A stretch of 60,674 nt of DNA, the filler included, from Sanchytrium tribonematis (Eukaryota), in assembly GCA_018985235.1 (NCBI GenBank). It is 4 parts of 4 records of this genome, joined end to end, with 100 filler letters (N's around TTAATTAATTAA, not from the genome) between each part and the next. Parts side by side here need not be neighbours in the genome. Positions count along the whole stretch, not along the records: positions 15,259 to 30,366 come from JADGIG010000156.1; 3 more parts are not named here. One strand, given 5' to 3'. Below, piece by piece: positions 3,041 to 52,200 of the stretch. The translations under genes and the position numbers were made by a program. The notes beneath the pieces are model-generated. The model had not been told where the DNA came from, did not search any database, and worked only from the letters and a program-made list of their open reading frames with translations. Position 1 is the first letter of the stretch. The number at the start of each line of letters is the position of its first letter.

Positions 3041-4454
3041 TTAATCCAATAACCTTAAGATTTTACCAATTCCTTTCGTTCTTCCCTCTCTAAACAATAT
3101 TTTCATATCAATATTGAGATACTCAGGGTGACTAATAAATCTCATTCTGACGATGCTCTTATCGCCATTGCGTATAAGCGCCTTGCTCATGTCCAAAATT
3201 TGTACAGTTTGACGAACATTTCCTAAATAAGAGAATTTTACGAGCATGTAACATCGTCTGATAATTTACCGCAATTGTGGTTGAATGGTGAAGAACTAAT
3301 ATCTCAGCTTCAAATTCACGGGTGACGTGACTTGAGATATCTACTTCTTTTGATACCAAGACCATGCCTTTACGGATTTGACTCCGCTTTATCTTTTTCA
3401 AGGCCAAAGAAACACTTTGACCTGGATGAGCAATATTGATAGGAACCCTCTTGCGATGGATTCCTTTTACTTGTGTATTGAAGAATTGACCATTCTTATC
3501 TGGTCCTAAAAGTAAGTTATCTCCAATTTTGATGACTCCGCTCAATATTTGACCGGAAACAACGCATCCAACACCTGGAACGCTAAATGATTCAGTAATT
3601 TCATATTCCACAGATTCTCCATTTGAGAATTGTTGACGACTAGGTAAAACATTTAAAAATAATCTTAAAAGCTCGATACCATCGCCGGTCACATTACTGA
3701 CCATAAAAACAGGACAAATTCTTTCTCCTGATAAATTCATTGCCACTTTAATGACATCTTCTTTAGTTCGAATAAAAATGGGCATTTTACGACAACCGGA
3801 ACTCTTCAATATCTTTTGAAGTTGATTCACAGTTGACTTGAGCACATTAGGGGGCGCCATATCAATTTTCGTAACAACAATCATGGAAGGAATATTTAAC
3901 AAAAGTGTTAAACCCAAATGTTCTTTGGTCATTCCGATCATTCCCGCATTGGCGCCAACCATTAACATGGCATAGTCTGGTTGAGAACTACTTAGTCCAT
4001 AGACTGTGGTCTTAAGGTACTTTTCGTGTCCTGCTAAGTCGATAAATGTTATCATTTTGCTGCTGTTTAACGCAATCTGATCCCAAGTCATCTTATGATG
4101 CTCATTTTTTATTACCTGTGCTCCAAATTCGTCAAAACCCATGCACTCCATACCAACACTTGAGGTTCTACCTGTCAAGAGTTCATGTTTGTGTTTAAAC
4201 AAAACTTGTCGAGCCTTTCCCCTACCGTCATCCAGGCTCCCTTTCGTAAGAACACCCAATATGGTGCTCTTACCTGCATCGACGTTGCCTATTACAGCCA
4301 CTCTTACGTCTTCTAAAGTATGAATGTCTGCACGGTTTCGTATCAGACAATGATCTTCAGAGATTGGCGTGATTATGTCATCTTCAATTTTGGTGGATTC
4401 GTTAAAGGTGTAAGTGGGATACTTTAATGCCAATTGACTTTTTTCTACGATCAT
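3041..4454 (-). CDS. GTPBP1: GTP-binding protein 1/2 (GTPBP1 family translational GTPase), 2 exons: 4454-3242 and 3222-3041
   Basis: GNVDAGKST, GRTSSVG, DLAGHEKYLKTT, TKID motifs and the C-terminal FREGRTKGIG. The frames join after removing the 19-nt intron (..MLHA-R-NVRQTV..). Confidence 0.9.
3223..3241 (-). other. 19-nt spliceosomal intron GTAAAATTCTCTTATTTAG (phase 1)
   Basis: Removal restores the conserved GTPBP1 C-terminal domain frame. Confidence 0.9.
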
Positions 4455-14819: not shown

Positions 14820-15158
14820 ATTTATTATTAAAGACAGAATCATATTTAATTCCGGATTTATTATGGGGAGCAACTATTGTCAAGCTCCTACAGTTGACGA
14901 TGACCTTCAAATAACTAAAAATATATGCTAAATGTCGTTCTCGACAAAATAGATCGATTTGAAGCTAAAGTGGCTCACATGCAAAAGTAACCACGCATTA
15001 TCTATGTCAGCAAATCACTACTCTTTACTTAATTATCCTCCTTGTGTAATCACTATCAGTACCTCAAAACTTTGCTGTCAGGAACATAACTTACAAATGC
15101 TTTCAAGTGAGCACTCCTCTGCTAGATAATTAGCTATGAAATTGAATTATATGTCTTA

Positions 15159-15258: not shown

Positions 15259-15530
15259 CAGGCTGGAGTTTGTCAAATGAGCAAGAAAAATATCCTAGAA
15301 TGACATTTTGGAGATATTTTAGCACCAGTGTTCTTAGTAAGTTTGTATTCCCTTGGCAAACGAAGCTGGATGAATTGCTACTGAAAGTTAAGCAGCGGAA
15401 TTTTAAAGATAGTGCCACATTATGTTCAGATCTACCATTCTGGCCCAAGAAGTTGTTGTCGGAGTGGCACCGAGATGTTGCTGATCACGAAAAAGTAAAA
15501 GAATTAAGTTTGGTACTGGAAACTAACTAA
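15259..15530 (+). CDS. 3' fragment of a gene truncated by the contig edge
   Basis: Open frame from the contig start to TAA at 15530. Family not recognised. Confidence 0.45.
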
Positions 15531-15592
15531 GGTTCTTGAGAGGTATACTTTGTCACAGTTATCAACACAGAATGAATGAGTAAAACCATTTA

Positions 15593-17384
15593 TTAGACTT
15601 CAATGAATCTGATATAATTTTTGAGCCAAATTGCAGTGCTCTCGTCTAATATGGGAGTTAACTCTTCCAAACATCTTTTTTGATATGCATTAAACCATTG
15701 TTTTTCTGTCTTTGTTAGGATTTCGCAATCCAACAAATTGAAGTCCAAAGGGAAAACAGTAATATTTTCAAAGTGAAGCCAATTTTGCTGTGGTTTAGAA
15801 TAGCCCTTCAAATACGGTTGTATTAGAAGAATAGTCTCAATTCTGATTCCAAATTCGTTTGTTTCATAATAGCCTGGTTCATTCGTGATTGTCATACCGG
15901 ATTTGAGTGGGAAATTTGCAAATTCTTGCCTACGTTAAATTCAAATACCTAAATCCAATACCGTGAGGACCTTCGTGAACGTTGAGAAAAAATCCAACAC
16001 CGTGACCCGTACCATGCCGATAATCAAGCCCGGCTGCCCAAAGATGTTGTCTAGCTATAGCATCAATTTGAAATCCAGATAAGCCTTCAGGAAATACCAA
16101 GCTATCAATTGCAATATGGCCCTTTAATACTCTAGTGTATGCTTCTTTTACAAAGTCCGAAGGTTTTTCGGTTCCAAGCCAAACTGTCCTAGTAATATCG
16201 GTAGTGCCGTCAAGATATTGTCCTCCGCTGTCGACCAACAAGCATCCATCTACAATCACAGAAGAAGCTGATTGTTCCGGCTTGTAATGAATTATTGCCC
16301 CATTTTTCCCCATTCCGATAATAGAGTCAAATGATTCACCCTGAAAAAAGTCTTGATGAGCTCTAAATTCCCTTAATTTTTTAGATGCCGAAAATTCTGA
16401 AATATTTTCCTTTTTGTAGGTTGAAAAAAGCCATTGAAAGAACGATGCTAGTGCAGCACCATCTCTTAAATGACAATTTCTGAATCCTTGCTGTTCTTCT
16501 TTCGTCTTGATTGACTTGAGGTGATATGCAGACGATTTCTCTGTTATTACCAACTCTTTTTCTCTAGAAATTGCAATCTTGGCATTTAAGCGACTATCGA
16601 TTAAAACTTTTCCTGGAATGGTCTTCAAAATTTTGACGACCATGTCGCTGTCATAGGGATGTATTTGAATTTCCATTTTTTTCAAATATTTATCGACTTC
16701 ATGACTTAGTTTTGATGCATCAATGAAGAGATGGCAAGAATTTTTACCCAGAATTAAATAGGAGAAAAAAACCGGATTAAAAGGCACATCTTTTCCTCTC
16801 AAATTGAGGATATATGCAATATCATCAAGGATTGCATAAACGGCGGAATTGCAACCCTTTTTTTCGATATCCTGACGAAGAGCTTTTAGTTTGTCATCAG
16901 AGCTTCTTCCAGTGTTGCTGCATAATATTAATTGAAAATTCTCCCCAGTAGGTCGTTCGGGGCGTGCGGTCCATACGGAATCGATTAAGTTTTCAGTCAG
17001 TTCCAGACGCAAAGGCTCGATAGTGCTTTTCAATTTCAGATACTCTGAATAGGGTACGGTAAGTGGGTCAATTGCAACAGTACCGCTTACAGAATTTAAA
17101 AGCCACTCTTCTTTAGAAAGGCAATCCACAGTTCCCATTTTCATTAATTTGATTTCGGCTGGTAATTGATTTTCGGCCTGCAGAAAATAGCGCCCATCAG
17201 TCCACAAAGCTGCATTTTCTTGAGCAATAATTGCAAATCCTGCACTTCCTGTGAAATTCGTAATAAAGGCTCTTCTCCCATCACATGGATGAACATACTC
17301 ACTGAAATGTGCGTCTTCTGAAGGGACAATAAATGCAGAAATTTGCTTTTTGCGCAGCAACTGACGCAACGAGGCTAGTGACAT
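15593..17384 (-). CDS. Xaa-Pro aminopeptidase (aminopeptidase P, XPNPEP1/Fra1 family), 2 exons: 17384-15949 and 15929-15593
   Basis: PSEDAHFSEY, FTGSAG, WTDGRY, DSGGQYLDGTTDITRT, HGTGHGVG, VHEGP, and after splicing GMTITNEPGYY..FGIRIE. Confidence 0.93.
15930..15948 (-). other. 19-nt intron GTATTTGAATTTAACGTAG (phase 2)
   Basis: Removal joins HEGPHGIGFR to QEFANFPLKSGMTITNEPGYY in frame. Confidence 0.92.
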
Positions 17385-17399
17385 TTTCCAAGGGGAACC

Positions 17400-17801
17400 A
17401 TGTTTAAGCATTTCTTTCGCCGAGCAAGCAGGATCGAGACTTCAGAACTGCATTCTAAAGAGCATATTGATAGAATTGCCAAAGAATTGAGTGAGGCACA
17501 AAAGTTATGGGATAATGGCGAATCTGTCAAATTTAAGCATCTAGCAATGATTTCCGCTTCAGCTGTTATTGTTTTTGGTATCTTTTATCTGAAAAACGAT
17601 AAAGAAAATGCAATTTCACAATATATAGTTCATAAAATGACTCCAGAGTCAATAAATGATAAGAAACAGTTGAAAACACTACTCACTCACCAAGAATTGA
17701 GTGAAAATCGATTGATCATTGACAAACTGGTAACACCTCAATTTTCAACCAAGGATCCTTATCTTCAAGAAAGAGGATCTCCTTTCAATACACATTATTG
17801 A
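17400..17801 (+). CDS. Probable mitochondrial single-TM protein (possibly a complex I accessory subunit)
   Basis: Arg/Phe-rich N-terminus, one hydrophobic segment and a C-terminal GSPFN. The family assignment is tentative. Confidence 0.55.
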   Translation: MFKHFFRRASRIETSELHSKEHIDRIAKELSEAQKLWDNGESVKFKHLAMISASAVIVFGIFYLKNDKENAISQYIVHKMTPESINDKKQLKTLLTHQELSENRLIIDKLVTPQFSTKDPYLQERGSPFNTHY

Positions 17802-17841
17802 ATAAATTTACTTCAGAAATCCATTATATTGAGCCAACTGC

Positions 17842-18795
17842 TTAGAAAAAAATGTCCTCCTCCTCTAAAATTGTTTCTACATCTCTATCGCCAACTTTAC
17901 CCGGAATAACAGCGTTTCCCGTGAAATCTGAATCAGACTGCTCAGTGTAAGTGTTAATAGCACCACTAGAATTGTCATCTCCATTCTGTGCTGAATTGTC
18001 ATAAAACTTCATTTCAAGCCATTCTACATTTTTAATCCTAGTTACATATTTAGTATATAGATCCATTAACTCGCTCTCTAACTTTTCAAATTCATCCATA
18101 TAGGCTGGCCGAATATGCTTCAAACTTTTCAATCGCTCTGACCTTCTTTCCAATTCGGATTCTTTGTTTTCAATTTTCAACCTTATATTTTTAGACTCTT
18201 GTTGTACACTTCTTAAGTCATCTACTGTAGCGCTGTACGCAGAAGCAAATTTGTTACACTCTTCCTGTATATGGCCAGACATGCGATTTAAGTCAATAGA
18301 TTCAGATAAGACTTTTTTTCTTCGAAGATCAAGCTCATTTTCATTTTGTAATTGAAAGTACAATGCCTTGCCGCTATCAGCTATGTTATCGCACAATGAA
18401 CGAAATTGTTTCGTTTCAATTCTATTAATTGCAGAAGAGACATGGCTTTTATCGCTAATTGTTTCCAATGCGCTCTTTATATACTTTGATATTTTTAAAA
18501 GTTCTCTTACACTTGAAATATCACTCCTGTAGAGATTTGCTATATTAATTATCGAAAGTTGTGGAACTAATTGGAAAAGATGTGCTACATATGCTTTAAA
18601 AAAGGTGATTCTCTCCTTGGAAGTCGATATATTGAGCTTTATGTTAAAGTTGGGATCCAATTGATTGGTCATATACACCAAAACATCAGCCATCATATCA
18701 AACCGAGGTTCTATTCTTAACTGGTCAAGGAAAATGCTCTGATACCCCAGTTCTATTAAATTAAATTCAAGTAATTGAATTTCCTTGAAACTCAT
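17842..18795 (-). CDS. CLUAP1: Clusterin-associated protein 1 / intraflagellar transport protein IFT38
   Basis: LY.SD...VRELLKI, KIENKESELER...RLKSLK.IRPAYMDEFEKLE.EL..LY..YV.R..N..WLE, and an acidic tail. Confidence 0.85.
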   Translation of the reverse strand: MSFKEIQLLEFNLIELGYQSIFLDQLRIEPRFDMMADVLVYMTNQLDPNFNIKLNISTSKERITFFKAYVAHLFQLVPQLSIINIANLYRSDISSVRELLKISKYIKSALETISDKSHVSSAINRIETKQFRSLCDNIADSGKALYFQLQNENELDLRRKKVLSESIDLNRMSGHIQEECNKFASAYSATVDDLRSVQQESKNIRLKIENKESELERRSERLKSLKHIRPAYMDEFEKLESELMDLYTKYVTRIKNVEWLEMKFYDNSAQNGDDNSSGAINTYTEQSDSDFTGNAVIPGKVGDRDVETILEEEDIFF

Positions 18796-18822
18796 GTAGT
18801 ATTCAAAACAAGGGATTTATTT

Positions 18823-19707
18823 TTACGAATCATTATTTGCAAATTCGCTTATCGACTGATCAATTGGAACTGCAATCTGCATTTCAGCAAAACTACTTCT
18901 TCTCTTTCGACATTGAAGTATTTTTCCATAATTATTTTTAGGGGAATCTGCCTCGTGATAAAAAATCTTCTCAATCTCATCCTTTAATTCATGAATATCC
19001 CTAGAACTTGAGGCATTTGATCTGCTATTATACTTAGGCGCACTTTTATCATGAGCAAAAGATATTCTTGTACTGTTTTGTTTAAATAGTCCTTTCAAAG
19101 TATTATTTCGGCTTACCGCAGAGCTGGAATTTTTTCTTCGCTGGGAACTATCTGCCAACGATGCTCTTCTCATCAGCAATTCAATGTTCGCACCAGGTGA
19201 ACTATCATTAGAATTTATAATTCTTTGACTCAATGATTCGCTGACGACGTTAAGCATTTGTCGATATGTCCGAATTAAATCAGAATCTCGATTGAACTCT
19301 GCGTCATTTTGCTTTCTGGTGAAAAATTCAACAAGCTTCAAATGATGCGGGTGAATGACTGTATATCCAAATGACCTAATAGCGAGAGTTCTCACGCTCT
19401 CATCCAAGATTTGATCTAAGTTATACAAAAGTCCTTGGACAATTGGTAAAAGTTTAGTATAAAAGTATACCCACACGTCAGATAACTTTAAAATTAAATT
19501 TTCAATCTCTAAATCCTTTAATTTTGCAGCAATATTTTCCATTGACTGTTCTAGCAACAATTTTGACTGCTTATTTAAAAGATCAACTTCTTGCTGTAAT
19601 ATTTCAGGCTTGAACAAGTCATTGAGAATCTCAATTGAATTCAAGTTATTGGGATCGGAAATATAAGTTGAAATATGAGCAGCAACAGTTATAAATGGTT
19701 CATTCAT
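18823..19707 (-). CDS. HbrB-domain protein (Bit61/Protor-like TORC2 subunit)
   Basis: LILKLSDVWVYFYTKLLPIVQGLLYNL...VRTLAIRSF..VIHP matches the HbrB pattern; low-complexity Ser-rich tail. Confidence 0.7.
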   Translation of the reverse strand: MNEPFITVAAHISTYISDPNNLNSIEILNDLFKPEILQQEVDLLNKQSKLLLEQSMENIAAKLKDLEIENLILKLSDVWVYFYTKLLPIVQGLLYNLDQILDESVRTLAIRSFGYTVIHPHHLKLVEFFTRKQNDAEFNRDSDLIRTYRQMLNVVSESLSQRIINSNDSSPGANIELLMRRASLADSSQRRKNSSSAVSRNNTLKGLFKQNSTRISFAHDKSAPKYNSRSNASSSRDIHELKDEIEKIFYHEADSPKNNYGKILQCRKRRSSFAEMQIAVPIDQSISEFANNDS

Positions 19708-19770
19708 TTTCTTTGATTTTATATGTGAAACTAAGAAACAAAAAAAATTAAGTTATCGTTCAATTTGTAT

Positions 19771-20247
19771 TTATTCAATATCATTGACATATGCCCATTC
19801 ACGTAAATCGCAATAAAACAAAATGGAGAAACAAGCTGCAATGATTTTTTCTTCCCAAAAATGAAAATTAATTAATGTCCAAACCAGCACAATCGACCAT
19901 AAAAATAAGAATACATTGGCAACAACATGTGCTTTTTTAGTATGTGTCATACTTGCGTAACCCAATAACGTAATGTAAACATGCCCACTTATATCGATAC
20001 TAGTGAGATTCATAAAAAGATCGGTAGCATAGTATATGAATGTGTAGAATGCGGTGTAATAAAGATATATTTTTGCATTTCCAAATATCAGATGTATGAT
20101 GGAAACATAGTACCACGTTAACTTAACAGTATAAACATTCATCATTTTCATCCATATCGGGGTATTGTATGTGATTTTGTTCAGGGACAACAAACAGATA
20201 ACGAGAAGGATTAGAGTAAAAATATTGTGGAATTGATTGTCAAACAT
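19771..20247 (-). CDS. FIT-family (FIT2/Scs3/Yft2) membrane protein, minimal size
   Basis: NVYTVKLTW, DISGHVY and T.INFHFWEEK correspond to the FIT motifs NVYFVK..W, DISGH and YFHT..EK. Confidence 0.7.
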   Translation of the reverse strand: MFDNQFHNIFTLILLVICLLSLNKITYNTPIWMKMMNVYTVKLTWYYVSIIHLIFGNAKIYLYYTAFYTFIYYATDLFMNLTSIDISGHVYITLLGYASMTHTKKAHVVANVFLFLWSIVLVWTLINFHFWEEKIIAACFSILFYCDLREWAYVNDIE

Positions 20248-20256
20248 TGGGAGAAA

Positions 20257-21106
20257 ATGTTCACCAAATATTTGGATTACCTACATTATTGGATCTATAA
20301 CAGAGATATCTCAAAATTTCAATTTAATGAAACAATTGCACTAGGATCTACTTCTAGCGGAATTACTATATGCATTTTATATTTGACGACGTTGTATGTG
20401 CTAAATTTGAGAAAAGCTCCGTTGAATATTCCAACTTGGATCCCGGCATTGCATAATTTGTTATTGACAGCCTTAAGCGCTGTTTTGTTTCTTTGGATGT
20501 CCGAAAACGCGGCGTACTTTCTCTTTAAAAAGGGCTTATTATTTAGTGTTTGTGCGGAGGAATCATATTCCCCAAGGGTTGAATTCATAATGTATCTTAA
20601 CTACCTGACCAAGTATTATGAATTAGTTGACACCCTGTTCTTGGTTTTGAAGAAAAAAAAGTTAGAGTTCCTCCATGTTTATCATCATAGTAGAAAATTT
20701 TAATTTAGGTATGACTTTACTACTTTGTTTGTTTGAACTTCAAGGTCGGCCTCCTGTATCCTGGGTTATAGTGTACCTAAATCTTGCTGTTCATGTCGTA
20801 ATGTACTTTTATTACTTTTTGGCAGCGCTTAAAATTAAGGTCTGGTGGAAAATGGCAGTGACAATACTTCAAATTGTACAGTTTGTAATCGATTTAATGT
20901 TTGTGTACGGTTGCTCTTCCATTTTGATTTTACAATATTTCCATTTAACTGACATTCAATGCGCAGGGACAACCTTTGCGGCGGTTTTTGGTTGTTCATT
21001 ATTAACAAGCTATTTATTCTTATTTGTTTTGTTCTTTGGAAAAACTTACAAGAGTAAAAAAGAAACTAGCACTGGCAAAAGCAATAAAACAAAGAAGAAT
21101 AAATAA
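20257..21106 (+). CDS. Fatty-acid elongase (ELO/GNS1-SUR4 family), 2 exons: 20257-20689 and 20709-21106
   Basis: YLNYLTKYYELVDT, FLHVYHH, NLAVHVVMYFYY, TILQIVQF and a C-terminal dilysine ER motif. Confidence 0.92.
20690..20708 (+). other. 19-nt intron GTAGAAAATTTTAATTTAG (phase 1)
   Basis: Removal gives HVYHH-S-MTLLLC in frame. Confidence 0.92.
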
Positions 21107-21114
21107 AATTGAAT

Positions 21115-21486
21115 TCATTCTGCGTCTTTTGGAGTCAATTGAACAGAAACTAAATATGGGCTATCTTTCTTACTTGAGCTTTTAAAATACGATTTCAAGG
21201 TATCTAATGATTTCTCAATAATACGAATTTTTGCATCATTATCGCGGATCCACCCAACGTTTTGATTCGGAGGCTCATTTTTTTCTTTTGAAATTCGTTC
21301 CCATCTTCTTTTGTGTTTTGTATCGAAGTGTTCAAAGTTAATTTGAACTATAAGGCCCTTTTCTAAAAACCGCTTCGACTGATTGAGTTTTATATTCAAA
21401 TCATGTTCCCCAATTTGCGATTTAATTACAAGAGTTTTAACCTTGGTAGCAGTTTTGACAATTCTTCGAAAAAAGAAATGTATCAT
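21115..21486 (-). CDS. Mitochondrial translation initiation factor IF3-like protein (C-terminal domain only)
   Basis: Short transit-like N-terminus, then KTLVIKSQIGEHDLNIKLNQSKRFLEKGLIVQI. Confidence 0.7.
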   Translation of the reverse strand: MIHFFFRRIVKTATKVKTLVIKSQIGEHDLNIKLNQSKRFLEKGLIVQINFEHFDTKHKRRWERISKEKNEPPNQNVGWIRDNDAKIRIIEKSLDTLKSYFKSSSKKDSPYLVSVQLTPKDAE

Positions 21487-21491
21487 CCTGT

Positions 21492-22491
21492 TTATTGTGG
21501 AAAGTGTTTTAATGCATATTTGACTGTACCAATTATTGCGCCTAATTGAACACGGTCAGTTGATCCTTGCCCGATATTACCCTCAATTTTACCAAAACTT
21601 TCTAAGATGTAGGATTTCTGTGAGTAGTCCATTTTTTCTAGTAAAAATCTATCGAAAAGCCTCTGAAAAACACCTAGGAGCAGGTAACCTCTTGACTTCA
21701 TTAAAGAATGGACATCTAAATAAGTTGTTATTACGAGAATACGCGGATGTGAAGTCTTTGGTTATAATGTTTAAGTAAATTTCTTCAAGATGGTCCTCAT
21801 TTGGCAGTCCCATCATCTCATAAACATCTTCTACTGCTATGAATTTATCTCTGATGCACAGTCCTTGTAAAACATTTAAGATACACCGCATATCGCCCTG
21901 GCTTACTTTTATAAGTGCATCGGTGGCATCATTAGCAATACTTATTTTCTCATTCACGCAAACTTCTTTAAGCTTTTGTTTTATGTCTGTGCTCTCTAGT
22001 GGCATAAAGCGGAATCTGGTACATCTACTTTGTAAAGCGGGAATTATTTTGGAGGAGAAATTGCAAATCAAAATAAAACGAACATTTGATGTATATTGCT
22101 CAATAATACGCCTCAGAGCTCCTTGAGCCACCTGAGTTAAATGATCAGCTTCGTCCAAAATGATCAATTTATAAGGCTTTCCAAAAGCTTTAGTTCCACT
22201 AAATTCTTTAATTCTTTCACGAACAACATCTATACCACGATCATCACTAGCATTCAATTCTAGTACGTAAGGTGCCATATTATTGCCGTATATTCTGCGA
22301 GCGATGTTGATGGCCATTGTAGACTACATGAATTATATAACTACCTTTCCTGTACCAGCTGTACCGTAAAACAAAAGATGAGGCAGGCTATTTTTGGAAA
22401 GGAATCTTTGGATTGTCGCCAATATGTCATCTTGGGAAATAATGGTGTCCAAGGAAGTTGGACGGTATTTCTCGACAAATGGTAAACTCAT
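21492..22491 (-). CDS. Replication factor C small subunit (yeast Rfc3/human RFC5-like), 3 exons: 22491-22345, 22323-21735, 21715-21492
   Basis: PFVEKYRP, PHLLFYGTAGTGK|ST, LELNASDDRGIDVVR, LDEAD, AQGALRR and SRC. Exon 1 is missing from the ORF track. Confidence 0.92.
21716..21734 (-). other. 19-nt intron GTAATAACAACTTATTTAG (phase 1)
   Basis: Joins KDFTSAYS-H-VHSLMKSRGY to the RFC C-terminal domain. Confidence 0.85.
22324..22344 (-). other. 21-nt intron GTAGTTATATAATTCATGTAG (phase 0, contains an in-frame TAA)
   Basis: Splits the Walker A motif GTGK|ST; removal restores it. Confidence 0.92.
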
Positions 22492-22506
22492 ACAAGAACG
22501 GAGAAA

Positions 22507-24523
22507 TTAAGCAACATATTTATATAAATTCATATCCGATGTATCACGCACTAAGTAATCTCTTTCAATCAAGTTGTTTATACGAGTTTTGAATAGCGTA
22601 TTGTCTAGTGGAAACTTTAAGTCTAGAATTGTTTGATTAAACAGGTCATCATGGGAAATACATTTCCTGGATTTCATTAGGCGGACGATAACAGCTTCCA
22701 CTTGATGTTGTCGATCTTGAAAAACCTTGGCTTTAGTCTCTGCATCCTCTTTAACAGTCTCTTTCAGAGCCATATTCGCTAACGAAATCCTGACTAGTTT
22801 ATGCGTAAAATTTAAATTTAAGCTATAAACCTCGGTAGAATCATACATAGGAGGCTATATAAAATGGAAATACGTTATTTGAGGATAGCAATATCTGGAC
22901 TTTTGAATTTAGTAAACTAGAAAGAGTGCTGCAAAGATCGAAATGTTCCATTTCCAGCTCAATCTGAAGACTCTCGAACGAGGCACTTTGGCGATTTCCA
23001 ATAATTATTAGCACGGAAGCCTGTAACGTATTGCATATTAATTCCTTCTTACCAAGTGGGAACTCGCTGGACAAGACACAGCGTGATAAAAGAGGAACTA
23101 AATGTAGTGCTTTTCGCTTGTTTCTATCAGTATAAAAATCGGTAAATCTTCTGTAAGTATCTGACAACGGTTCTGGTAGATTGATTTTACTTTGAGGATA
23201 TGTAGGCCACTTGGAAGAAGTTAAAATTTGACAGCTAAAATCAAACTCAGCAATATGCTTGGCTCTTCCAAGGGCTAGAAAAGATGCTGATTCTTCTATG
23301 CTGGTAGAGATATCCTTAAACATTTCTGAAAGAGGATCTGATCCAATTTCCTCTTTTACATAATTCACAATAATTCTTTCATAATCTACACTTACGCTTT
23401 TTTGAAGCAGCAATCTTCGGGCTAGAGACACTTTATAGAAAGCTATGTATATATCCTTTTCGGATATGCATCTAAAAAATAAAATGGTTTTTTTCGCAAA
23501 ACTTTCAAAAGTTGTTTTATCTAATAAAAGTGGGTGCTGACCTCTCATTACTGCGTCAACGTACTTGACAAGAAGTTCAGAAACTGGTTTACCATTTCTC
23601 TGTCTATTTACGTAAATTTCAAGCCCCTTTTTGTAATGTGGGATCCAATTGATGTTTTTTGGTAAAATTTTTTGACATTTTGAAATTAGATCCATCCATT
23701 GGAAAATGACTTGATTATCCAATAAGTCTACAATTATTGAGGATTGCGCCTTGATATAATTTTCAAGTATCTTACCAAATTTGGGGAAAATTTTTGACTC
23801 ATCAATCAATAGAAATAGAAATTCACGTTGACTCTCTTGCAATCGAAATAAATCATTAAAGTGGCTTTCAATAAAATTGAGTCTCTGCTCAAATAGACAT
23901 TCTCTTAATAAGTTTCTGACCTCGCACTTAATGTCGTGATAAAATTCAATTGCAACTTTCTCTTCTATTTCAAATGATTTTTGAATGCATTCTAAAAACT
24001 CTTTAATTGAATAGGGATTAGACTGATTAATGTATATGTTGTGTAAATTTGCCAAAACATGATTATTAAAAGATACTGTTAGTCTTAATTTTCCAAACAT
24101 GCGAACAGATTCTAACGACTTATTATCGACAAAATACTCGATTATAGGATTGGGCAAAATATTTCTATATATCATTATTAATTCCGTATAAATATTTCGT
24201 TGCTTACTATTCATATAGGCTAAACAAGTCGAAATTACCTTGACTTTTTCTTCATATTTAGCAAAACTCTGACAATTTTTAGCGTTTAATGTTTGCACAT
24301 AATTTGAGCATTGGACAAATGTCCAATTATAGAGCTCGTCTTCTTTGTGAAATAAAACAAGCTCTTTGACCAAAAGATATGATTCATGGCCATTGTACCC
24401 TATATTTTTAATAATATTAGATATAGATTCTTTCACCTTTTCCAGTGAGTCCTCTACATAGTTGCTGTCAACTTCTGGCATGGCAGTAAAATTGATTTTA
24501 ATCTGTTTTCTTTTACTTAGCAT
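22507..24523 (-). CDS. Cullin, CUL4-like, 2 exons: 24523-22874 and 22854-22507
   Basis: KDIY.AFYK.SLARRLLLQKSVSVDYE, neddylation domain DRQHQVEAVIVRLMKSRK, LKFP, and LIERDYLVRD..YKYVA. Confidence 0.88.
22855..22873 (-). other. 19-nt intron GTATTTCCATTTTATATAG (phase 0)
   Basis: Joins the cullin body to the neddylation domain in frame. Confidence 0.9.
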
Positions 24524-24549
24524 CTCCACTCGCAAAACACAGGAGTAAG

Positions 24550-25509
24550 ATGGAATTTGCTTTCAATCCAGGTTTTTTGGAGTCCAAAATCAAGCTTGAA
24601 GGTAGAGAGCGTATTATTCTCCAGGCGGATAACGTTGGCTTATATAATCAAGAAGAAAGACTCTATGATCATGACAAGGGAACAATTTGTTTAAGTAATT
24701 TTTGTATCTATTGGCAAAATGAAGTCAAATGTATTGCGTTCTACTTAGAACAGATAACCCACGTTGATTATTCGCCAAATTTGTTCCTGAGGCATGCAAA
24801 AATCAAAATTTATTTCGGAGATAGATTTTTACAATTATCTTTCAGGGGTGCTAAGGAAGATGGGGTCATCATGTTTGGCGAATTAAAAATAGCACTAAAC
24901 AAAAGGGAATGGGCCCTTTTAGGTGGTTTACAATTTATATTGATTACTAAAAAAGCCACCTTTGATAATGCAAAAGATTTAATGAACGATGCACTATCTG
25001 GAATTGATTTGCTGCAAGAGAAAGCAGATAAATTGCTTGAGCTTTTCAAAGATCGTCCTCATTTTTTCGATACGTCGCAAAGAACGGATAATTTAGATTC
25101 AAAAATTCAAATATTAATTAAAAAGTCACTTAAATCTTCGCAGATCGTTCCACTAATTGATCTGTATTATGCCATAAATCGTTCAGATCAATATAATATG
25201 ACTTCCCCAAAAGAATTTTTAGAAAGCATTTTGTTTTTGCAGTCAAAAAATGAATTGGTTTTCAGAAGGCTTGAAGGGAGCGGTATGGTACAGTCGATAG
25301 ATTTTACTGACGATATGTTTAGCGCGACTGTAATCTCTCTTTTGGAGAAGCATGAGAGTGTTGATGCTCATCTCGTTGCAACTATAATTAATCTTGACTT
25401 GGCATCGACTTTTCAAATGATGGATTATATTTGCGCCTCTTATCAAAAAATTGTCAAAGATGAGAATATCGAAAATTGTAGGTTTTTTTTAAACTCCGAA
25501 TTTATTTGA
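24550..25509 (+). CDS. VPS36: ESCRT-II subunit Vps36 (GLUE domain plus winged helices)
   Basis: QADNVGLYNQ..G...LSNFCIYW, LQLSFRG, LIDLYYAINR, SPKE and a C-terminal DE..E..RFF.N.F. Confidence 0.75.
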   Translation: MEFAFNPGFLESKIKLEGRERIILQADNVGLYNQEERLYDHDKGTICLSNFCIYWQNEVKCIAFYLEQITHVDYSPNLFLRHAKIKIYFGDRFLQLSFRGAKEDGVIMFGELKIALNKREWALLGGLQFILITKKATFDNAKDLMNDALSGIDLLQEKADKLLELFKDRPHFFDTSQRTDNLDSKIQILIKKSLKSSQIVPLIDLYYAINRSDQYNMTSPKEFLESILFLQSKNELVFRRLEGSGMVQSIDFTDDMFSATVISLLEKHESVDAHLVATIINLDLASTFQMMDYICASYQKIVKDENIENCRFFLNSEFI

Positions 25510-25518
25510 TGACGAATG

Positions 25519-28500
25519 CTACGACAAAACGAACGAACCTCGTTTTGTATTTTCGAGCTCATAACCTTCATAAAGTCTTCGATAATAATCGAGACCCCTC
25601 ATCCACATGTTTTTTTCCTCTATTGTATTAGTAAAAAAGTATAAAGTATTTGCATTTTGAAGGTTTTTGACATCGTGACAGGTCAAAGAAACTAGTTTCT
25701 GACATTCTGGATGGACGATCATGCGACATGGTTCGCATTGGCTGATCTGGACCGGATTTCCAGAGATGAGTTCCAAACAAAGCTCGCAAATTACCTCTTG
25801 TTTTATGTAACCTTCTTTGAAGTAGTGTCCATTTTCTGGAATTTTAGCAGAATCTAATTCCTGAATGGAAGCTAATACATTATCATTCTAAATTATCATT
25901 ATCTACCTCTTTTTTCCATTTTTCCAGTTCCAGCCTCAAGTGAGCCAGTCTTTTTAAAGAGTTTTGCAATTCTTTGTTAAGATCATCGCCAGATTTCTTC
26001 CAAAAATTGGCGTTCGTCATTTTTTTGACGCCTTGTATGAATTGCTCTTCCCTTTCAATTGCTTTTTCTACTTTTTCTATATAGGATACATGTTGGCTAG
26101 TTTTTTCCTCGATTTCTGCATCAGGATCTTTTTCTAAAATCGCCGATATTTCTTGGTGGAGATTCTGAATTAATTCTCTAGCTTTCTCAAGCTCCCCCAA
26201 GACAGCTGGCCTTGCACCTTCTGCTGCAAATTTTAGGTATTTTTCTGCAGCTAACTGCATTCTTTCTTCTGCAGCCAATCGTCTCTTCAATTGTAGCAAT
26301 TTTTGACCGCTATTTAATTTTCCCGGAGCAAGGTTAGCGATGCTATCTTTTTGCGTTGCAACACCAGGAAGCTTCATAAATTGTATCTTGAGTCCCACTT
26401 CAAATTCCTTTTGAGAAATTCCGCCAAGGTCATGGTAGTTAACATGCCCAACAACAAAGATTTCAGATTTCATATCAGACAAAACCATTCCTTTGCCTTC
26501 ATCATTAAGATCCTTTTCCCTTTCGTACCCCCAAATCTGAAAGTCCTTAAGCACCAAAAACTTTTTCTTAAGTCCCTTGTTGATCTTTTCGGCTTTAGGA
26601 CAATGAACCCATCCTCTTAGAAACAATTCGCCTTTGGGATCAACTGTTATGCTAGCAGAGACAGTCAATTTTTTCTTTGGCTTTGTTACTAGCGGAGATT
26701 TAATTGCACTCTGAATCTCATAGCTAGATCTTCTCCGCTCGTTGTTTCTGGGATTCAATCTTGTAGGTTGTTCTTCCGCCATCATGAAGAGCTGATTAAC
26801 ATCATTATCTTGCGATTCCGTAAATTTTTGATTCATAATTGAATTGGAGTCCTGAGAAGTTTTGCCTTCCAATTCTTTTATTCTTTTATTAGCTTGTTCA
26901 AGTTGTTGCAAGAGCTCTCTTATTTCTCCTCTTTCCCTCTTCCCAGATGTAATTGTTTTATCTTTGGATGTTTTATTTTCTTTCTCTAAAGCTGATAATC
27001 TTAGAAAAAGTCCTTCCTGCTCGGAATACATCGCGTCAGCCCTTCGTTTTTCAGCATCTCTCGCATGGATTAGCTCTATAATTCGCTTTTCATTGTTTTC
27101 AAAATCTGATTTTATTTTCAAAAAATCAGCGTTCACAATTTTGAGGTCTTCTGATAATTTCGAAATTTCAGAGTCTTGAAATCTCACAAATTCGTCTTTT
27201 GATTTAACTACTCTATTTAAATCTTCTATGTTATTTTCTAGCTCAAAGTTTTGAGTGTCTTTTTCGGCCAGTTTTGCTTTGATTATCAAAATTTCTTTAT
27301 CCTTGGATCTCAGTCTCTCCTCAAACTCATGTCTTATTTTTGTTTCGTTATTGGTGTTATGTTTCAATGAATGAATTTCCTTTTGTAAAATGTTTTTTTC
27401 CGATTTTAGCGTTTCTAAGAATTGTGCTAGCTCATCTCTATCCTTAGATATTTTTTCAAGTCTTTCATTCAGCTCTTTGTACAAAAATTCCTTCATCGAA
27501 AAGTCATTTTGCACCATTATTAAGTTCTGACGTTCATCCTTTAATGCTGCTTCTTTTTCTATTATTAATTTTTCCAAATCTAGTCTTATAGATTGCTGGG
27601 CCTTCAATTTGTCTTCCAGCATTCTAATGTCGGCTTGAAGTCCACTCTTTTGTGACTCTGACTTTGATAATAGACGCACCATAGCTTCCTTTTCGTCCTC
27701 GCTTGATCTTAACTTTTCAGCAAGGCTGTCTATTTTGCTTCTAAAATGTTGGTCCTCGTTTTCTACTTTTTGAGAATTTTTGTCTTCAGATGCCTTTTGA
27801 GTCAATAATTGCATTATTTGATCTTCAAGGCTTTTGTTTTTTGCCTTGAATTCTTCCAACTTTAAAACTTGGTTTCTGGACTCGTGTTCAACCATCGCTA
27901 ATTTCTTTTCTAATTCAAATTTCGAGCCGAGAAGATTTTCCAATTCGATTGTTTTCTTTTCAAACGATTCTCTGAGACTTTTGTTTTCGTCCGATTGAGA
28001 AAGGTTGAGAGTCTCAACTGTTAAAATTTTTTGCTCTAATTCCGCTGTAAGCTTAGAAGAATTAAAAAACTTTGTATTTAATTCGGAAAGTTCAGTCAGC
28101 AATTTGTCTTTTATCTGGACTTCCTCTGAAAGTCTAAATCTCAACTTTTCGAATTCTCCATTAGAATCTGAGCTTTCAGACATTACCTTTAAAATCTTTT
28201 TGCGCTCGTCATCCAATTCTAAATCTCTTTGTTTTAAAACGAGTTCCAGACTGTCTAATTGAATTTTAGTTGTCTCATATGATCTATTCGCTTCTCTGAA
28301 TTTATTTTCGACATCGTCCTTCTCCGCTTTAAGAGATTTGATGATTTTCTCCAGCTCCGCAATTTTAACGTGATTTCTGTCTAAAAAAGCAACCATATCT
28401 TTGAGTTCTTTTCTTGATTCCTTTAGCGACTTGTCAAGTTTCTCTTTTTCTGCAATGATATCCTGCAAATCTTTAGAAGACTTTTGAGCCTTTTCGACTT

Positions 28501-29867
28501 CCTTTTTCAAATTTGAAATTTCTGAAGAAATTTGCGCATTTAATAACTGCAGTTCTGTAATCTCTTGATTTTTTGACTCTAATTCCTTATTATTGCCATT
28601 ATGTCTTGGCAAATCCGGCAATCCAAGAGTTATCCGGGAGTCATTAAGCATGTTTCCACGATTGAAATAGAAACCGATGAAAGGTAGTTGAATCCCAACT
28701 TGGGGCTTACCTCTTTGAAGGTCTTGTCCTAGAATTTCATCGTCAAACTCAGGAAAGTTGGATGTGTCATCTTCTGATTCTAAATTTGGTATGAACGGTG
28801 GCTTCATATTGCGAATATTTTTAAAGTCCAATTTCCTAAAAAAAGGATGCTTCCTTATCTCTTCTGCACCGTTTCTTCCTAATCGTTTCTCTGCAGGAAG
28901 CAATAGCTTAAACAATAGATCTTTTAATTCTGTTGAGAGAGTAACATCCTCTGGCCATTGTAATGAATTTGGAGAGCTCATAATTCTACCATATGTGGTG
29001 CTTAAATTTTCTGCGTAAAAAGGAGGGTCTCCGCAAACAATTTCATACAGGATTGTACCGAAAGACCACCAATCGCACTCCTTACCGTATGATGTATTAC
29101 CATCCTGAGCTTTCAATATTTCCGGGCAAATGTAATCAGGAGTCCCAACTGATATCTTTGAACGACACTTGCCATCGGAATCGAGTTGAATGGCCGCCCC
29201 AAAATCCGCCAATTTGATATGCCCATTTTTTTTAATTAGAATATTGTGTGGTTTAAGATCTCTATGTATAAAGTTCATGTTGTGCAATTCTTCTAAAGCA
29301 AGTAAAATTTCAGCGCCGTAAAATCTGGCAACATCTTCTGTATTCATATTCTGAAAAGCTTCATTTTCCAATAAATTTATAAGGTCTCCTCCAGGAATAT
29401 ATTCCATAACTAGGTATAAATTTCCCGCATCTTGAAATGCTGCCATTAAAGTTGTAATCCATTCACATTCTTTTCCTTTTGCCATGACATTTCTTTCTTC
29501 AAAATAAAATACGTTTTCCTGTCTTAAGACTATTTGCTTATTGAGTGTTTTCAAAGCATACAATTGCTTGTCAACTTTAGATCTTATAAGGGAAACTGTT
29601 CCAAAAGCTCCTTGAGCTAAAATTTTGATAAATTCATAATCTTGCAAACCAACTCGAAGCTCTTGTATTCTTTTAACCGCAGGTCCAACTAAATTAGTAT
29701 ATTATACATTTTTGAACAAATTTTTGAGTGTGGTCTGATTTAATATGCTGAAAGTCTTCATATAAGGCTGTTAACGCGTCAATTAAAGCTTCAAGGTGAA
29801 TTGGAGGATCTTGCAATGGATTGTCTTCATAAATTTGTTTCTTTATGGTTTCTATTCGTGTTTCCAT
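25519..29867 (-). CDS. ROCK/MRCK/citron (DMPK-family) Ser/Thr kinase with a long coiled coil, PH, HR1-like segments and C1 domain; 3 exons: 29867-29708, 29688-25907, 25887-25519
   Basis: N-terminal LEALIDALTALY cap, GAFGTV, FEERNVM, HRDLKP, SVGTPDYICPEILKAQ, ECDWWS and QLPFIGF. After splicing there is a complete C1 domain H..CELC..C..C...HPEC..C. Confidence 0.9.
25888..25906 (-). other. 19-nt intron GTAGATAATGATAATTTAG (phase 0)
   Basis: Joins the kinase ORF to the C1-domain exon in frame. Confidence 0.88.
29689..29707 (-). other. 19-nt intron GTATAATATACTAATTTAG (phase 1)
   Basis: Joins the ATG-bearing exon (METRIETIKK...QKFVQK) to F-GPAVKRIQELRVGLQDYEF. The kinase ORF otherwise lacks an ATG upstream of subdomain I. 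Confidence 0.9.
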
Positions 29868-29928
29868 TCAATGATGATTTGTGGCTTGAGAGTTTTAGTG
29901 CCAAGATTTTATCAAAATTCCAACAAAT

Positions 29929-30366
29929 TTACTTAAATATGGTCTCAAGGCTGTGTATAAATGGATCAAAAAGAGCTTCAAATGTGTCATAAATTAAAAA
30001 TGAAATGCTTAGTCTTTCAAAACTAAGAAGTTCCGTATCACTACTTGACTTGATATTAGATGATAGTAGTAAACAATTTTTTATGCTTCTTAAAAAAAAG
30101 TCCCCTCTTTTGAGCAAGGACTCTATATCGGAAGATGTCAAAGATTTTCTTTGCTGCCGGTACGGAGTTAAAAAAGAAGGAAACACAATCGACTTGATAT
30201 TATTTTTGTTGCAAAATGACAAGATTTGTTCAACAGCTTGTATAATCGAGTCTTTGGGTTTCAAATCGTAGTCTGTGTCTTCACAGATTACATGGAAAAC
30301 AATGTGTGTGGTGGGAAGGTTGGAATGAATTGTATAGAAAAAGTCACCTTCGTTAAAATTATTTCG
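29929..30366 (-). CDS. C12orf4/FERRY3 (DUF2362)-like protein, 3' fragment truncated at the contig edge
   Basis: The upstream in-frame translation GDFFYTIHSNLPTTHIVFHV and LLKRGDFFLRSIKNCL resemble C12orf4 motifs. Confidence 0.65.
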   Translation of the reverse strand, partial: RNNFNEGDFFYTIHSNLPTTHIVFHVICEDTDYDLKPKDSIIQAVEQILSFCNKNNIKSIVFPSFLTPYRQQRKSLTSSDIESLLKRGDFFLRSIKNCLLLSSNIKSSSDTELLSFERLSISFLIYDTFEALFDPFIHSLETIFK

Positions 30367-34101: not shown

Positions 34102-34247
34102 TCAGTATGTGATTTGTCGAATATCCCCCGTGTACTACGATTTGAGACATGACAATTTGATCTTTTAATGGTTAGACACAATTACTGATTGCAATTTAAT
34201 ACTCTCATCTCTTCCATTCAAAAAATAATTTCCAGGAGAAGCGACGT

Positions 34248-44400: not shown

Positions 44401-45531
44401 TTACTTTTTATGGTTTCTGGAAATGGTACCTGCCCTATTTAAGAACCTCGATTTCTCTTTCTTTTCTTCTTCTATGGATTCATTGCTGCCAATCTCCATG
44501 GACTCTAATTTTGGAATAATAATTTCTTCATTTTTAGACAATTTATAATTGGCGGGTGGCTCTTCAAAAGAGGGTGCTTTACCAAATGGCTTTAATATGT
44601 CTAAATGAATGTCATTTTACCTTCTAATGTCTTTTTATTCTTTTCATAATCTTCATCTTCATCGTCTAACAAATCAATTAAAGATTCATCGTCACCTGTG
44701 AAGACGTGTACTTTGATTTTAGGATCTTTTATGAGTAATTTCACGATATCTATTTGTGCATTGGCTGCTGCAGAGTGTAGAGGCGTCCAACATTCGAAAT
44801 CTCTTGCATTCAAATCTGCCCCTTTTTTGATCAAATATTTTACAATTTCAGCATGTCCTTCTGCACACGCGATGTGTAATGGTGTTTGCTCTTTCCCTAG
44901 GTCATTATAATTCACGGGTATATTTTGATGTTCGATTAATTGTTTAACCAGCTCAAAATCACCTTCTCTGCAGGCTTCTAATAAAACAGCTTCATAATGG
45001 AATTTAACAGTCTTTTTTATTGGTGATTTCTTTGATGATATGGCGGATTTTCTTTTTTGTTGGGTAGTCATGTTTATTTGCGTGTTACTTGGTTGTTTTC
45101 TTAAAGTGCCATAATTTGGCATGGGTGGGTTACTTGAGCTTCTAGAACGCGTCCTTATTTCTGCTACTAACTCATCTGTGCTTAGATCTTTTATTTTATC
45201 AGTATTTGGGATTATAGATGGATCTGTGAATAATTTGGAAGTATCTGCATCTGCGCAGCAATCTATTGCCGTGTACTTTTTCTGGTTCTTTTTAGTAGGT
45301 GATGCTCCTAATTCTAATAATTTACGTACTATTGGGGTCATTCCATGGAAACTAGCGAGATGTAATGTCGTATTTCCATTTCCCCACATCATACCCAAAA
45401 ATGCCAATAATACCATTTTAGAGCCCAATTTAATACTTTCCTTCTCTACATAACTCAGTATATCCATGGCCATGTCCTCATCCATTAAAAATAACGCGAT
45501 TTGTATCGCATTTAAATTATTCACACTTGGA
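44401..45531 (-). CDS. Ankyrin-repeat protein with an RVxF-like motif (PP1-regulatory, MYPT/PPP1R16-like); 5' truncated; exons ..45531-44621 and 44600-44401
   Basis: KTVKF...VLLEACREGD followed by TPLHIAC and WTPLHSAA ankyrins. Splicing extends the frame about 66 codons to TAA at 44401. Confidence 0.78.
44601..44620 (-). other. 20-nt intron GTAAAATGACATTCATTTAG (phase 1)
   Basis: Matches the intron consensus (T-8, A-6) and opens a long downstream frame. No homology support for the last exon. Confidence 0.7.
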
Positions 45532-47869: not shown

Positions 47870-47897
47870 ATTGTCCCTTAAAACTTTTAAAAGAAGG

Positions 47898-49206: not shown

Positions 49207-52200
49207 ATGTCTCATTTGCTGCTATTACATCACTTAGAAATTTTATATACGGAGCTTAGAAAAACTGACAAGACTATTATATACCATCCTATCCGACAAA
49301 ATGAACTTAATTTTATGTTTTCAACAATTAAAAAGTGGTATCAAAGCCAGCACTCTTATCCAGATCCATTTTGTTTGGATCAGTTGAATTCAACATTTGA
49401 TATACACCAAAAACAAAAGAAAAACATGTCCTTGTTAGCAATGACACATCCAAGATCTTTTCATGTCTACACTTCGAACAATTCCACAGAATCTCCGGAA
49501 ATACCGCAGGTAGATCCTATAGATACATGCATCGGAATGTTGAGATATTTAAACTACGAAAAATACAATACGTTATCAGCACATCATGTTTTAATGCCAT
49601 TTATTCAAGCTATTGTTGGTAACTCCAAGGTTTGTTTGATATCTCTAAGAGCTATTCATGAATTGTTGCCAAAATTAATTGAATTAGATGAATTCGAATA
49701 CTGTGTCAAAATCATTTCTAGAAATTTAACAAAACTTGTACCGAAAGGCAATGAAGATGTTTTGGGGATATTGCAACTATTATTAGATATCTTCAAATTA
49801 CTTCTTGATTTCAATATGGACTCAGAGCAGTACACCTGGTGGATATCTACCTTACTCGGATATATAGTGGGGAAGTTACCAGATGGCTTGAAATTTCAAG
49901 CTGAACAATGTATTCTAGATTTGGTTGATCGATCTTGGAATGATCCTGCTTCAATTTCTAACATACTTCGAATGCTATTAAGTCCTATTTTACCTAAAGC
50001 ACCCTTTCAAGTTTGTTTTTCTCAAAATTCCAAGTTAAAGACATTATATTTGGACTACCAACAATACAAAGAAGCCATTGAAAATCATTTAATGTCACCT
50101 GTCATTATAAGTGGTGAGCCCTTGGGTTTTGAATCTGAAGGGCTCCAAAACTATGTAATGAGGCTGCTTGAGAAGCTCAACATCACCTTTTATATTAAAA
50201 ATCCTTTAGTCTCTTTAGAATACTCTGAGGCTTGGCAAAAATCATTAAAGCAAGAAGAATTTGTGGAAGTTTGCTTAAGAGTCAATGGACTTAGGTCTGT
50301 ATTCAGGCTCTTATATCACCCTACAACTTCTTTTCCAATTCGTTTTCAAGCATTTAAGACTTTATCATTTATAATCTTAAATAATTATAAAAACCCGAAT
50401 TACAAGACTGAAATATACGTTTTTTTTAGCTTCTTGATTGACGCAATTGGTCTCTTAGGACCAAACCCTGCTACTCTCACCCACCCTCGTGTGTCACAAT
50501 CAAAATTCAAGCCAAAGCAAGTTCCGTCTTATTTACCAAACTCTAACATGTCTAGTTCTTTATCCACTTTCTTTTCTCCCTTCACTACATATAGTCAACC
50601 TATTGAAGACGAAGAAGAAGCTAAACATATGCTTTTCCCATCCACGATGCCCAGAACATACCCTTTATGGGTTTCCATGCAAGCTGTGGAAAGTGGCGAC
50701 ACCGTCAGGACTTGGTCGTACACTAATATATTTTTGCATTGGTTTGACATTATAAATGAGCAAGAAAATAAGTTAAATACACTCAACGATGCTCGTTCAA
50801 GAGCTGGAAAAGTTGAAGTATCATTAAAAAGTTTTTCTAAGCCCGCGGAAATACCCAACTCTTTGTACAAAAGAATGTGGCATTCCCATGGAATTTTTCA
50901 CAGGTGCTTTAAGCAGAGCCATTATTTTGGACCTTTCACTTACTTTGGTAGTGGTGTTGTTCATCTTCCTGATAAATTAGAATCAAACCGCCTAGAATTT
51001 TTCGATAGCAATGGTCCGTTCCCAGCAGCCAGCTTTTTGAAAAGTTTTATTATATCGACAATTAAAGACCAACCTAAATCTCAAGAGGCAAATATTGCAT
51101 TAAGTGATGGAAAATATCAATATTTCAAAGACCCTTTGACAGAAAAGACATATGATGATCGCATAGCAGTATCAAACGAGGTTGTAGAATGGCGTAATGC
51201 TATAATGGAAACTATTGAGACAATTTTTGTCGACTCAGAACTAATATTGGCAGTCCTGAGTAATTTCGACTACAATGGAAACGACAACCTGTTCCAAAGA
51301 TTTTTAGTTGCTGTTAGCAAATTTTGCGTACCAGATTATATGTCAGTTTGTTCTAGATCGTTTTGCGCCGTGGCACTAAGCAGTATTTTTAGACTTTTAA
51401 AGCAGTTCACTACATTAATTGACCCTGCAGAGGCATATGACGAAAGCTTATCAAAGCAACTATACAGGAAGCAAATTGTCAAAACTTGTAGCAAGGTTTT
51501 TGACAGAGACATTAAAAAAGGACTTGAATTGTTTCAAGCTTATGGGTTTCTACCTGAAAACTTGATTGAAAATTCAAGTGAAACAGCTATTTTTTTAAAA
51601 TCTTGTAAAAATTTGAGCAAATCGAAGTTAGGGGAATTTCTTGGGAAGCCGCAAAATTTGCCAATATTGAAGGAATTCGTGAACACTTTTGATTTCTCTC
51701 ACGACCGTGTTGACGAAGCTCTGAGAGACTTTCTAACATCTTTTAGACTACCAGGAGAAAGCCAACAAATAGAGAGAATACTAGAATGCTTTGCTGCAAG
51801 ATATTTTGGAACAAAGCCAAAATTTATTGCAAATCAAGATGCCGTATTAATATTGGCATATAGCATTGTCATGTTGAACACTGACTCACATAGTCCACAA
51901 ATCAAGCAAAAGATGACTTTATCTGGATTTCAAAATAATCTCAGAGGAACGAATAATAATGAGAATTTCGATCCTGAATTTTTAAAATCAATCTATGAAG
52001 CCATTAAAATGAATGAGATTATTATGCCTGGTGAAAAAGATAACGATCAAACATATTTTCTCTTTTGGGATGAGGTGCAGCAAGACACTTCTCGCTTCGA
52101 GCAGTCGAAAAACAAATCCAACTTAATCCAGTCATTTTTTAGAGACAATTGGGGACTTTGGCTTTCTGTATTTGTTAATGGTTTTTATTTCTAATTTAGT

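Follow-up and report, generated by a model that had tools for sequence, protein, structure and literature searches.

Twelve inserts of 19 to 21 nucleotides (nt), found in a 60,674-nt stretch of the genome of Sanchytrium tribonematis (assembly GCA_018985235.1; the whole stretch is called the window below), have GT-AG ends, restore a reading frame when removed and carry one common 3' motif, with a T at position -8, an A at -6 and a pyrimidine at -5 counted from the 3' end. We regard these inserts as probable U2-type spliceosomal introns, with the invariant A-6 as the predicted branch point. The features expected of U2-type introns, GT-AG ends together with frame restoration, are present in all twelve, eight times with homology behind them and four times more weakly.

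A preliminary description of this DNA had quoted twelve intron 3' ends; all were found in the window, and each maps to a GT-AG insert. Their length is 19 nt in ten cases, 20 nt in one and 21 nt in another. Seven lie inside the range given, 15930..29707 (XPNPEP, ELO, two in RFC, cullin and two in ROCK) and five outside (GTPBP1, ankyrin, GBF1-like, threonine aldolase and MARCH6-like). Genes are densely packed in the window, at about 34% G+C, and intron density is about 12 in 44 gene models. The inserts are as follows:

3223..3241, minus strand: GTPBP1 intron, 19 nt, phase 1
15930..15948, minus strand: XPNPEP (Xaa-Pro aminopeptidase) intron, 19 nt, GT-AG, phase 2
20690..20708, plus strand: ELO (fatty-acid elongase) intron, 19 nt, phase 1
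21716..21734, minus strand: RFC3/5 subunit intron 2, 19 nt, phase 1
22324..22344, minus strand: RFC intron 1, in the P-loop, 21 nt, phase 0, contains in-frame stops; the decisive case for testing 3' anchoring
22855..22873, minus strand: cullin (CUL4-like) intron, 19 nt, phase 0
25888..25906, minus strand: ROCK-type kinase intron 2, 19 nt, phase 0
29689..29707, minus strand: ROCK-type kinase intron 1, 19 nt, phase 1; predicted branch motif TACTAAT
44601..44620, minus strand: candidate intron behind an ankyrin-repeat open reading frame (ORF), 20 nt; frame join and motif only, unverified
52181..52199, plus strand: Sec7/GBF1-like candidate intron, 19 nt, GTT donor; joins ORFs of 997 and 662 amino acids
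54418..54436, minus strand: L-threonine aldolase intron, 19 nt, AAG acceptor
55444..55462, minus strand: MARCH6/Doa10-like ligase intron, 19 nt; predicted branch motif CTAAC

Beyond these twelve, no frame-break junction with protein-family support was found in the window, stop-free in-frame introns in genes without homologues being undetectable. Two intron-like motifs of 20-21 nt were also seen outside called coding regions, at 15002-15021 and 4569-4589 (both minus strand), one of them with CTGAC at the branch position; they are possibly introns of untranslated regions, or chance matches.

Placement of the probable introns independently of the motif

Cuts were located by a motif-blind procedure in which all frame-restoring deletions of 1-60 nt, with any ends, were scored against homologs. 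At six of six junctions tested, the procedure chose the proposed cut or a slide of the same cut. The XPNPEP cut tied for best among 683 deletions, all ties being slides of it, and the ELO cut tied for best among 1,249; here the Pfam ELO profile runs on over the junction (123|123). In RFC, the intron 1 cut tied for best among 480 deletions, an 18-nt GT alternative coming 12th, and the intron 2 cut ranked sixth of 2,271, behind five non-canonical 19-nt slides. ROCK intron 1 was the sole best solution among 705 deletions and ROCK intron 2 tied for best among 794. Two more introns are placed by alignment with homologs of solved structure. In cullin, the match to CUL4B breaks off at residue 607 and starts again at residue 621, and the 19-nt cut yields exactly the 13 residues between; the GTPBP1 exons are colinear with mammalian GTPBP1 over the junction. 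In all, eight of the twelve inserts (XPNPEP, ELO, RFC twice, cullin, ROCK twice and GTPBP1) are placed by homology independently of the motif.

Elsewhere the proteins offer less guidance. Exon 1 of the aldolase gene aligns up to two codons from the donor, with about 100 model positions remaining, and exon 2 encodes about 92 amino acids. In the MARCH6-like gene, the junction coincides with the point where the Pfam MARCHF6_C match breaks off, position 135 of 180 in the profile, and for the GBF1-like cut a 28-nt GT-AG alternative satisfies the motif too. PDB searches returned no hits for aldolase exon 2, GBF1 exon 2 or the end of MARCH6 exon 1, and four downstream exons found no credible family in Pfam or NCBIfam. 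Among these is the ORF behind the ankyrin insert; the TAG of this insert might itself be the stop codon.

A fixed 3' module and reduced donors

The motif content is as the preliminary description had it: T-8, A-6 and Y-5 throughout, CTAAY in three inserts and a GTA donor in eleven. With the motif at -6 in 12 of 12 and no polypyrimidine tract, the introns would belong to the class with a fixed branch-to-AG distance; the spacing from Y-5 to the AG is given as only 3 nt in every case. When intron interiors were shuffled, TNAY never fell at one common 3' offset in all twelve (0 of 200,000 trials; best, 8), and the same was true of the eight homology-placed introns (0 of 200,000; best, 7). For comparison, 277 of the 6,256 AGs in the window (4.4%) carry the motif. 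A pyrimidine occupies position -9 in 11 of 12 introns (p 0.014), and in five it is C (p 0.002), relative to intron composition, as would be expected from pairing with a G of the U2 GUAGUA sequence; no enrichment was observed at -7, -10 or -11 among the 12 introns. Donors are nearly featureless beyond GTA, with G+5 in none of the twelve.

Matches to the 19-nt pattern GTA..TNAYNTAG occur eight times in the window, always on the sense strand and at frame breaks, and never antisense. Matches of the same motif at 16, 17, 24 and 33 nt all lie within unbroken reading frames, which argues for a length window. In-frame matches in CARM1 (24 nt) and in ELO and cullin (33 nt) were considered as introns and rejected, as they align as coding sequence. 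U12-type introns have an RTATCCTT donor and a TCCTTAAC branch site; we discarded this class for the present introns, whose donors are variable and A/T-rich from +4 to +8.

Probable introns in related sanchytrids

For RFC, aminopeptidase, ROCK kinase and elongase, the closest named homologues are from Amoeboradix gromovi (64-82% identity). In protein trees, the window, A. gromovi and a few further records form one group, supported at 100/100 for RFC and XPNPEP, and a quick ROCK tree gives the clade of window and A. gromovi a support of 100; the branching order within sanchytrids is not resolved by these three trees. Four window genes have A. gromovi orthologs that all sit on a single contig. 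By its place in the trees, the source of the window is a sanchytrid, that is, an algal parasite of the phylum Sanchytriomycota.

Published sanchytrid proteomes were obtained by running TransDecoder on genomic contigs (PMC8371127), so that genes with introns come out shortened or in pieces, as RFC, ROCK and ELO show. As the ORFs of the relatives were called without introns, the reading runs into them, and intron lengths can be back-inferred from the protein. All seven phase-1 read-throughs start with residues compatible with N|GT A, and six of nine read-throughs in relatives fit a 19-20-nt intron with the 3' motif of the window. All three from A. gromovi fit, each matching a 19-nt intron, which makes it likely that the tiny-intron design is common to the sanchytrid lineage. 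P0004, P0245 and P0246 end precisely at the codon spanning -8 to -6 of a 19-mer, and P0005 reads S-F-R at the equivalent codon position. In A. gromovi P0363 (ELO), a 19-nt insert is read as V-L-H-T-Y-I-G at the site of the window intron; P0243, at the site of ROCK intron 1, has a probable 20-nt intron, its read-through ending I-N-L-V. Both inserts retain the NAY codon at -7 to -5, the remainder having diverged. Two further read-throughs stop earlier and are uninformative. A metagenome scan with the relative protein P0003 returned five loci, all distant (26-49% identity), which were not used.

Shared intron positions occur in relatives at 70-83% protein identity, with diverged intron interiors; at RFC intron 2, for example, the ORFs of four of four relatives stop just past the intron position. 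Other introns are absent from the relatives: that of XPNPEP from three of three, in gapless alignment, RFC intron 1 from four of four and ROCK intron 2 from three of three. The ROCK ORFs P0243, P0245 and P0246, which are related to window positions 25519-29867, end within the C1 domain, at a probable intron missing from the window. Intron positions, as predicted here, turn over among sanchytrids.

The three introns absent from all relatives compared (15930-15948, 22324-22344 and 25888-25906) are each preceded by an exonic AG, with direct repeats of 2-4 nt; those shared with relatives (RFC intron 2, ROCK intron 1 and the elongase intron) have no such exonic AG. This AG may mark recent intron gain.

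Alternative readings

Several observations weigh against reading all twelve inserts as introns with a branch point fixed at -6. Four cuts (ankyrin, GBF1-like, aldolase and MARCH6-like) are not fixed by alignment, and the canonical GTPBP1 cut (3223-3241) puts an arginine where the mammalian homolog has a glycine. A non-canonical slide by 1 nt would restore the glycine. Among the relatives, the read-through of P0003/P0122 fits 22 nt only, not 19-21, and back-inferences from protein involve ambiguous codons (a stop could be TAG). The strong WCTRAY consensus is not what these introns carry, CTAAY being confined to three of them and a purine at -7 to just six of twelve.

In a rival reading, the introns are real but U2AF reads TNAYNTAG as a long 3' splice-site word, comparable to the nematode UUUCAG, and branching takes place at variable upstream adenosines. 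U2AF65 and U2AF35 are both annotated in A. gromovi, another TNAY lies upstream in 8 of the 12 introns, and pairing with the canonical U2 GUAGUA is frequently just tied at -6 (sole best in five introns, tied in six and beaten in one). However, the other four introns have no second TNAY, and the upstream alternatives would leave loops of 11 nt or less. The bases around the A (T-2, Y+1 and Y-3) also correspond to a branch consensus, one intron having TACTAAT, and Yarrowia has its full branch consensus at the identical offset. We consider a U2AF word unlikely on these grounds. It is less probable still that the motif is set by its distance from the 5' end (T12 and A14 of a 19-mer), 3' anchoring being an illusion of uniform length. 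Ten of the twelve introns are 19 nt long, and for these the two anchorings are indistinguishable; the preliminary description had called on the 20- and 21-nt introns, but homology does not back the 20-nt ankyrin insert, so that within the window 3' anchoring firmly rests on a single intron. This 21-nt RFC intron, placed by homology, nonetheless breaks the 5'-anchored pattern and fits the 3'-anchored one, and the inferred 20-nt intron of P0243 also ends AAY-YTAG.

We give equally little credence to a non-spliceosomal origin of the inserts, whether as assembly errors, pseudogene lesions, frameshift or bypass sites, or endonuclease-cut introns. Splicing is inferred here from DNA alone; yet all the inserts are GT-AG, they lie in essential genes and several contain stops, their positions are shared with relatives in which the interiors have diverged, and the A. 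gromovi annotation includes genes for the core spliceosome and the debranching enzyme. Contigs from a DNA sequencing run (X1) contain ten of ten inserts compared, gap-free, the ankyrin and GTPBP1 inserts lying outside the comparison; as X1 is possibly the source run, this counts solely against assembly error. U2-type introns with a predicted branch point at A-6 thus remain our preferred reading.

Splicing machinery and possible mechanism

Machinery genes were sought by identifier in the eggNOG supplement of PMC8371127. The A. gromovi annotation includes U1-70K, a U1A/U2B''-type protein, Prp40, U2AF65, U2AF35 and BBP, as well as SF3B1, PHF5A, PRP8, BRR2, CWC25 and DBR1; both published sanchytrid sheets contain U1-70K. 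A loss of U2AF65, suggested earlier, is not seen at the gene level in A. gromovi. The presence of U1 protein and U2AF genes disfavors a U1-less or U2AF-less system, and a U1-less reduced spliceosome of the Cyanidioschyzon type was rejected in view of U1-70K and Prp40, a comparison of protein genes only. An Rfam scan of the whole window gave no matches, hence no small nuclear RNA (snRNA) was detected there. Slu7, Prp18, Yju2 and U1C have no row in the A. gromovi annotation; about half of the proteins are unannotated (about 3,755 of 7,220 have annotation) and the calls are intron-blind, so that the missing rows are weak evidence. BBP is annotated in A. gromovi as two adjacent ORFs on one contig (PMC8371127 supplement file 4, rows 1135-1136), probably a single gene split by an unannotated tiny intron.

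TNAY as branch-point core, with branching at A-6, is still the best reading of the motif, as first proposed: T-8 and Y-5 flank the A as in the CTRAY family, with the -9 pyrimidine in front. The donor-to-branch distance would be 13 nt (13-15 nt across intron lengths), and the lariat of about 14 nt mentioned in the preliminary description follows by arithmetic, the predicted range being 14-16 nt. Most of the information would reside in a single 3' module, (Y)TNAYNTAG, to which BBP/SF1 and U2AF may bind first; U2 would then pair at -9, -8 and -5 around the bulged A. The second step would take the AG 5 nt past the branch without scanning, for which Slu7 and Prp18 might be dispensable. Distance is the likely guide to the donor, which is reduced to GTA and would lie 13-15 nt before the branch A.

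In natural introns of budding yeast, the branch lies at least 10 nt from the 3' splice site, against a predicted 5 nt here; Prp18 has been proposed to set the minimum, and at short distances Slu7 and Prp18 are dispensable (PMC10711555, PMC10158995). Human introns need about 50 nt between 5' splice site and branch, apparently for simultaneous binding of small nuclear ribonucleoproteins (PMC6692369, PMC4463651). At 13 nt, far under this value, the steric problem raised in the preliminary description is genuine, and U1 and U2 would likely occupy the intron in turn, or with a loosened footprint. We may tentatively hypothesize, without expecting every part to hold, that sanchytrids have the shortest fungal introns, spliced by a conventional spliceosome that keeps U1 and U2AF, has dropped Slu7 and Prp18, recognizes the 3' end first and reaches 13-15 nt back to a GTA, and that introns of 19-21 nt are still being gained at exonic AGs.

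Other features of the window

The window consists of four pieces of about 15 kb, with sizes falling in order, split by three identical N-flanked spacers; it is thus a concatenation of contigs, and gene neighborhood across spacers is meaningless. The spacers contain stop codons in every frame. Compared with run X1, there are 32 single-base differences in 15500-30300 and 39 in 45700-60600, in local two-path bubbles and with zero indels; none falls inside an intron. These differences suggest two alleles or strains. An intronless CLUAP1 gene (intraflagellar transport) lies at 17842-18816 (minus strand); the flagellum of this lineage is reduced and non-motile. Other genes include a GT92 glycosyltransferase at 34200-35810 (plus strand) and a secreted protein with a tectonin domain at 36450-37307 (minus strand). 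A weak retrotransposon gag match lies at 12820-13509 (minus strand).

Significance and comparison with known introns

We found no account of sanchytrid introns and no 19-nt fungal introns in the literature searched, subscription journals being mostly outside its scope. In the main text of the sanchytrid genome paper (PMC8371127; supplement partly covered), the word 'intron' occurs only within a reference title, and in the accessible part of PMC10459994 only in a reference. The 3' geometry is a known convergent solution, present in Yarrowia and Stentor. What looks new is the 19-nt length in a fungus, the donors cut to GTA and the predicted 13-nt distance from donor to branch; within a fungal phylum whose introns had been overlooked, the combination of -6 geometry, bare donors and 19-nt length appears undescribed.

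Sanchytrid gene counts and gene-loss claims need re-annotation using a 19-nt intron model. How a spliceosome operates with a distance from 5' splice site to branch far under about 50 nt is an open problem, for which a fungal case could be compared with yeast structures protein by protein; ciliates and rhizarians permit less of such comparison. If the 3'-first, Slu7/Prp18-less reading were true, sanchytrids would offer a yeast-comparable fungal case of a spliceosome closing a 14-nt lariat. An independent origin of the GTA...A(-6)...TAG design would suggest that -6 is close to a physical minimum for the second step. A clear branch signal in such short introns also departs from the pattern in the accessible part of PMC2483917, in which lineages that have short introns and many of them lack one.

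Yarrowia, Trichomonas and Giardia have been described as combining a fixed branch-to-AG distance with the lack of a pyrimidine tract (PMC2483917). Yarrowia lipolytica is the closest in geometry: in this fungus, which has no polypyrimidine tract, ACTAAC-AC-AG gives T-8, branch A-6 and C-5. Its introns, however, measure about 200-270 nt and have a strong ACTAAC, whereas those of the sanchytrid are 19-21 nt long with a degenerate TNAY (PMC2483917). The convergence with ciliates proposed in the preliminary description stands as far as the Stentor A-6 geometry goes, but it is not specific to ciliates, since Yarrowia has its fixed branch at an equal distance.

The comparison with Stentor itself, in which an A lies six nt from the 3' end, was correct (PMC9505925). 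Stentor introns are 15-16 nt long, with conserved snRNAs (PMC9505925), and those of Blepharisma are similar (PMC13685798). Like the sanchytrid introns, they start with GTA, are AU-rich and of near-fixed length and have A-6 (PMC9505925, PMC13685798); the most frequent Stentor intron ends in TTATATAG, like the window cullin intron (PMC9505925). Their density of 0.26-0.50 introns per gene is close to that of the window, and their U1 and U2 components are intact, with a probable sanchytrid parallel in the A. gromovi annotation. These ciliates differ in belonging to another supergroup, in a 10-11-nt loop and in lengths that are mostly multiples of three; the sanchytrid length of 19 nt is no such multiple, and T-8 and Y-9 are stricter.

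Encephalitozoon cuniculi, another reduced parasite of the fungal lineage, has very short GT-AG introns with a TAAYTT branch motif. These are about 25 nt long, number about 36 in the genome and have conserved donors, in a strongly reduced spliceosomal context (PMC6349667, PMC2483917); the sanchytrid lineage is distinct from this one, and its introns are shorter, have bare GTA donors and, extrapolating from the window, are much more numerous. Myxozoan introns have a median of 22-27 nt (PMC13644364). In size class and narrow length range, the nearest are Mikrocytos (16-17 nt) and the Bigelowiella nucleomorph (19 nt), which are of rhizarian or green-algal origin (PMC10245619, PMC2483917). Mikrocytos has a very reduced spliceosome (PMC10245619), and the nucleomorph introns are reported, in the accessible part of PMC2483917, without a branch signature.

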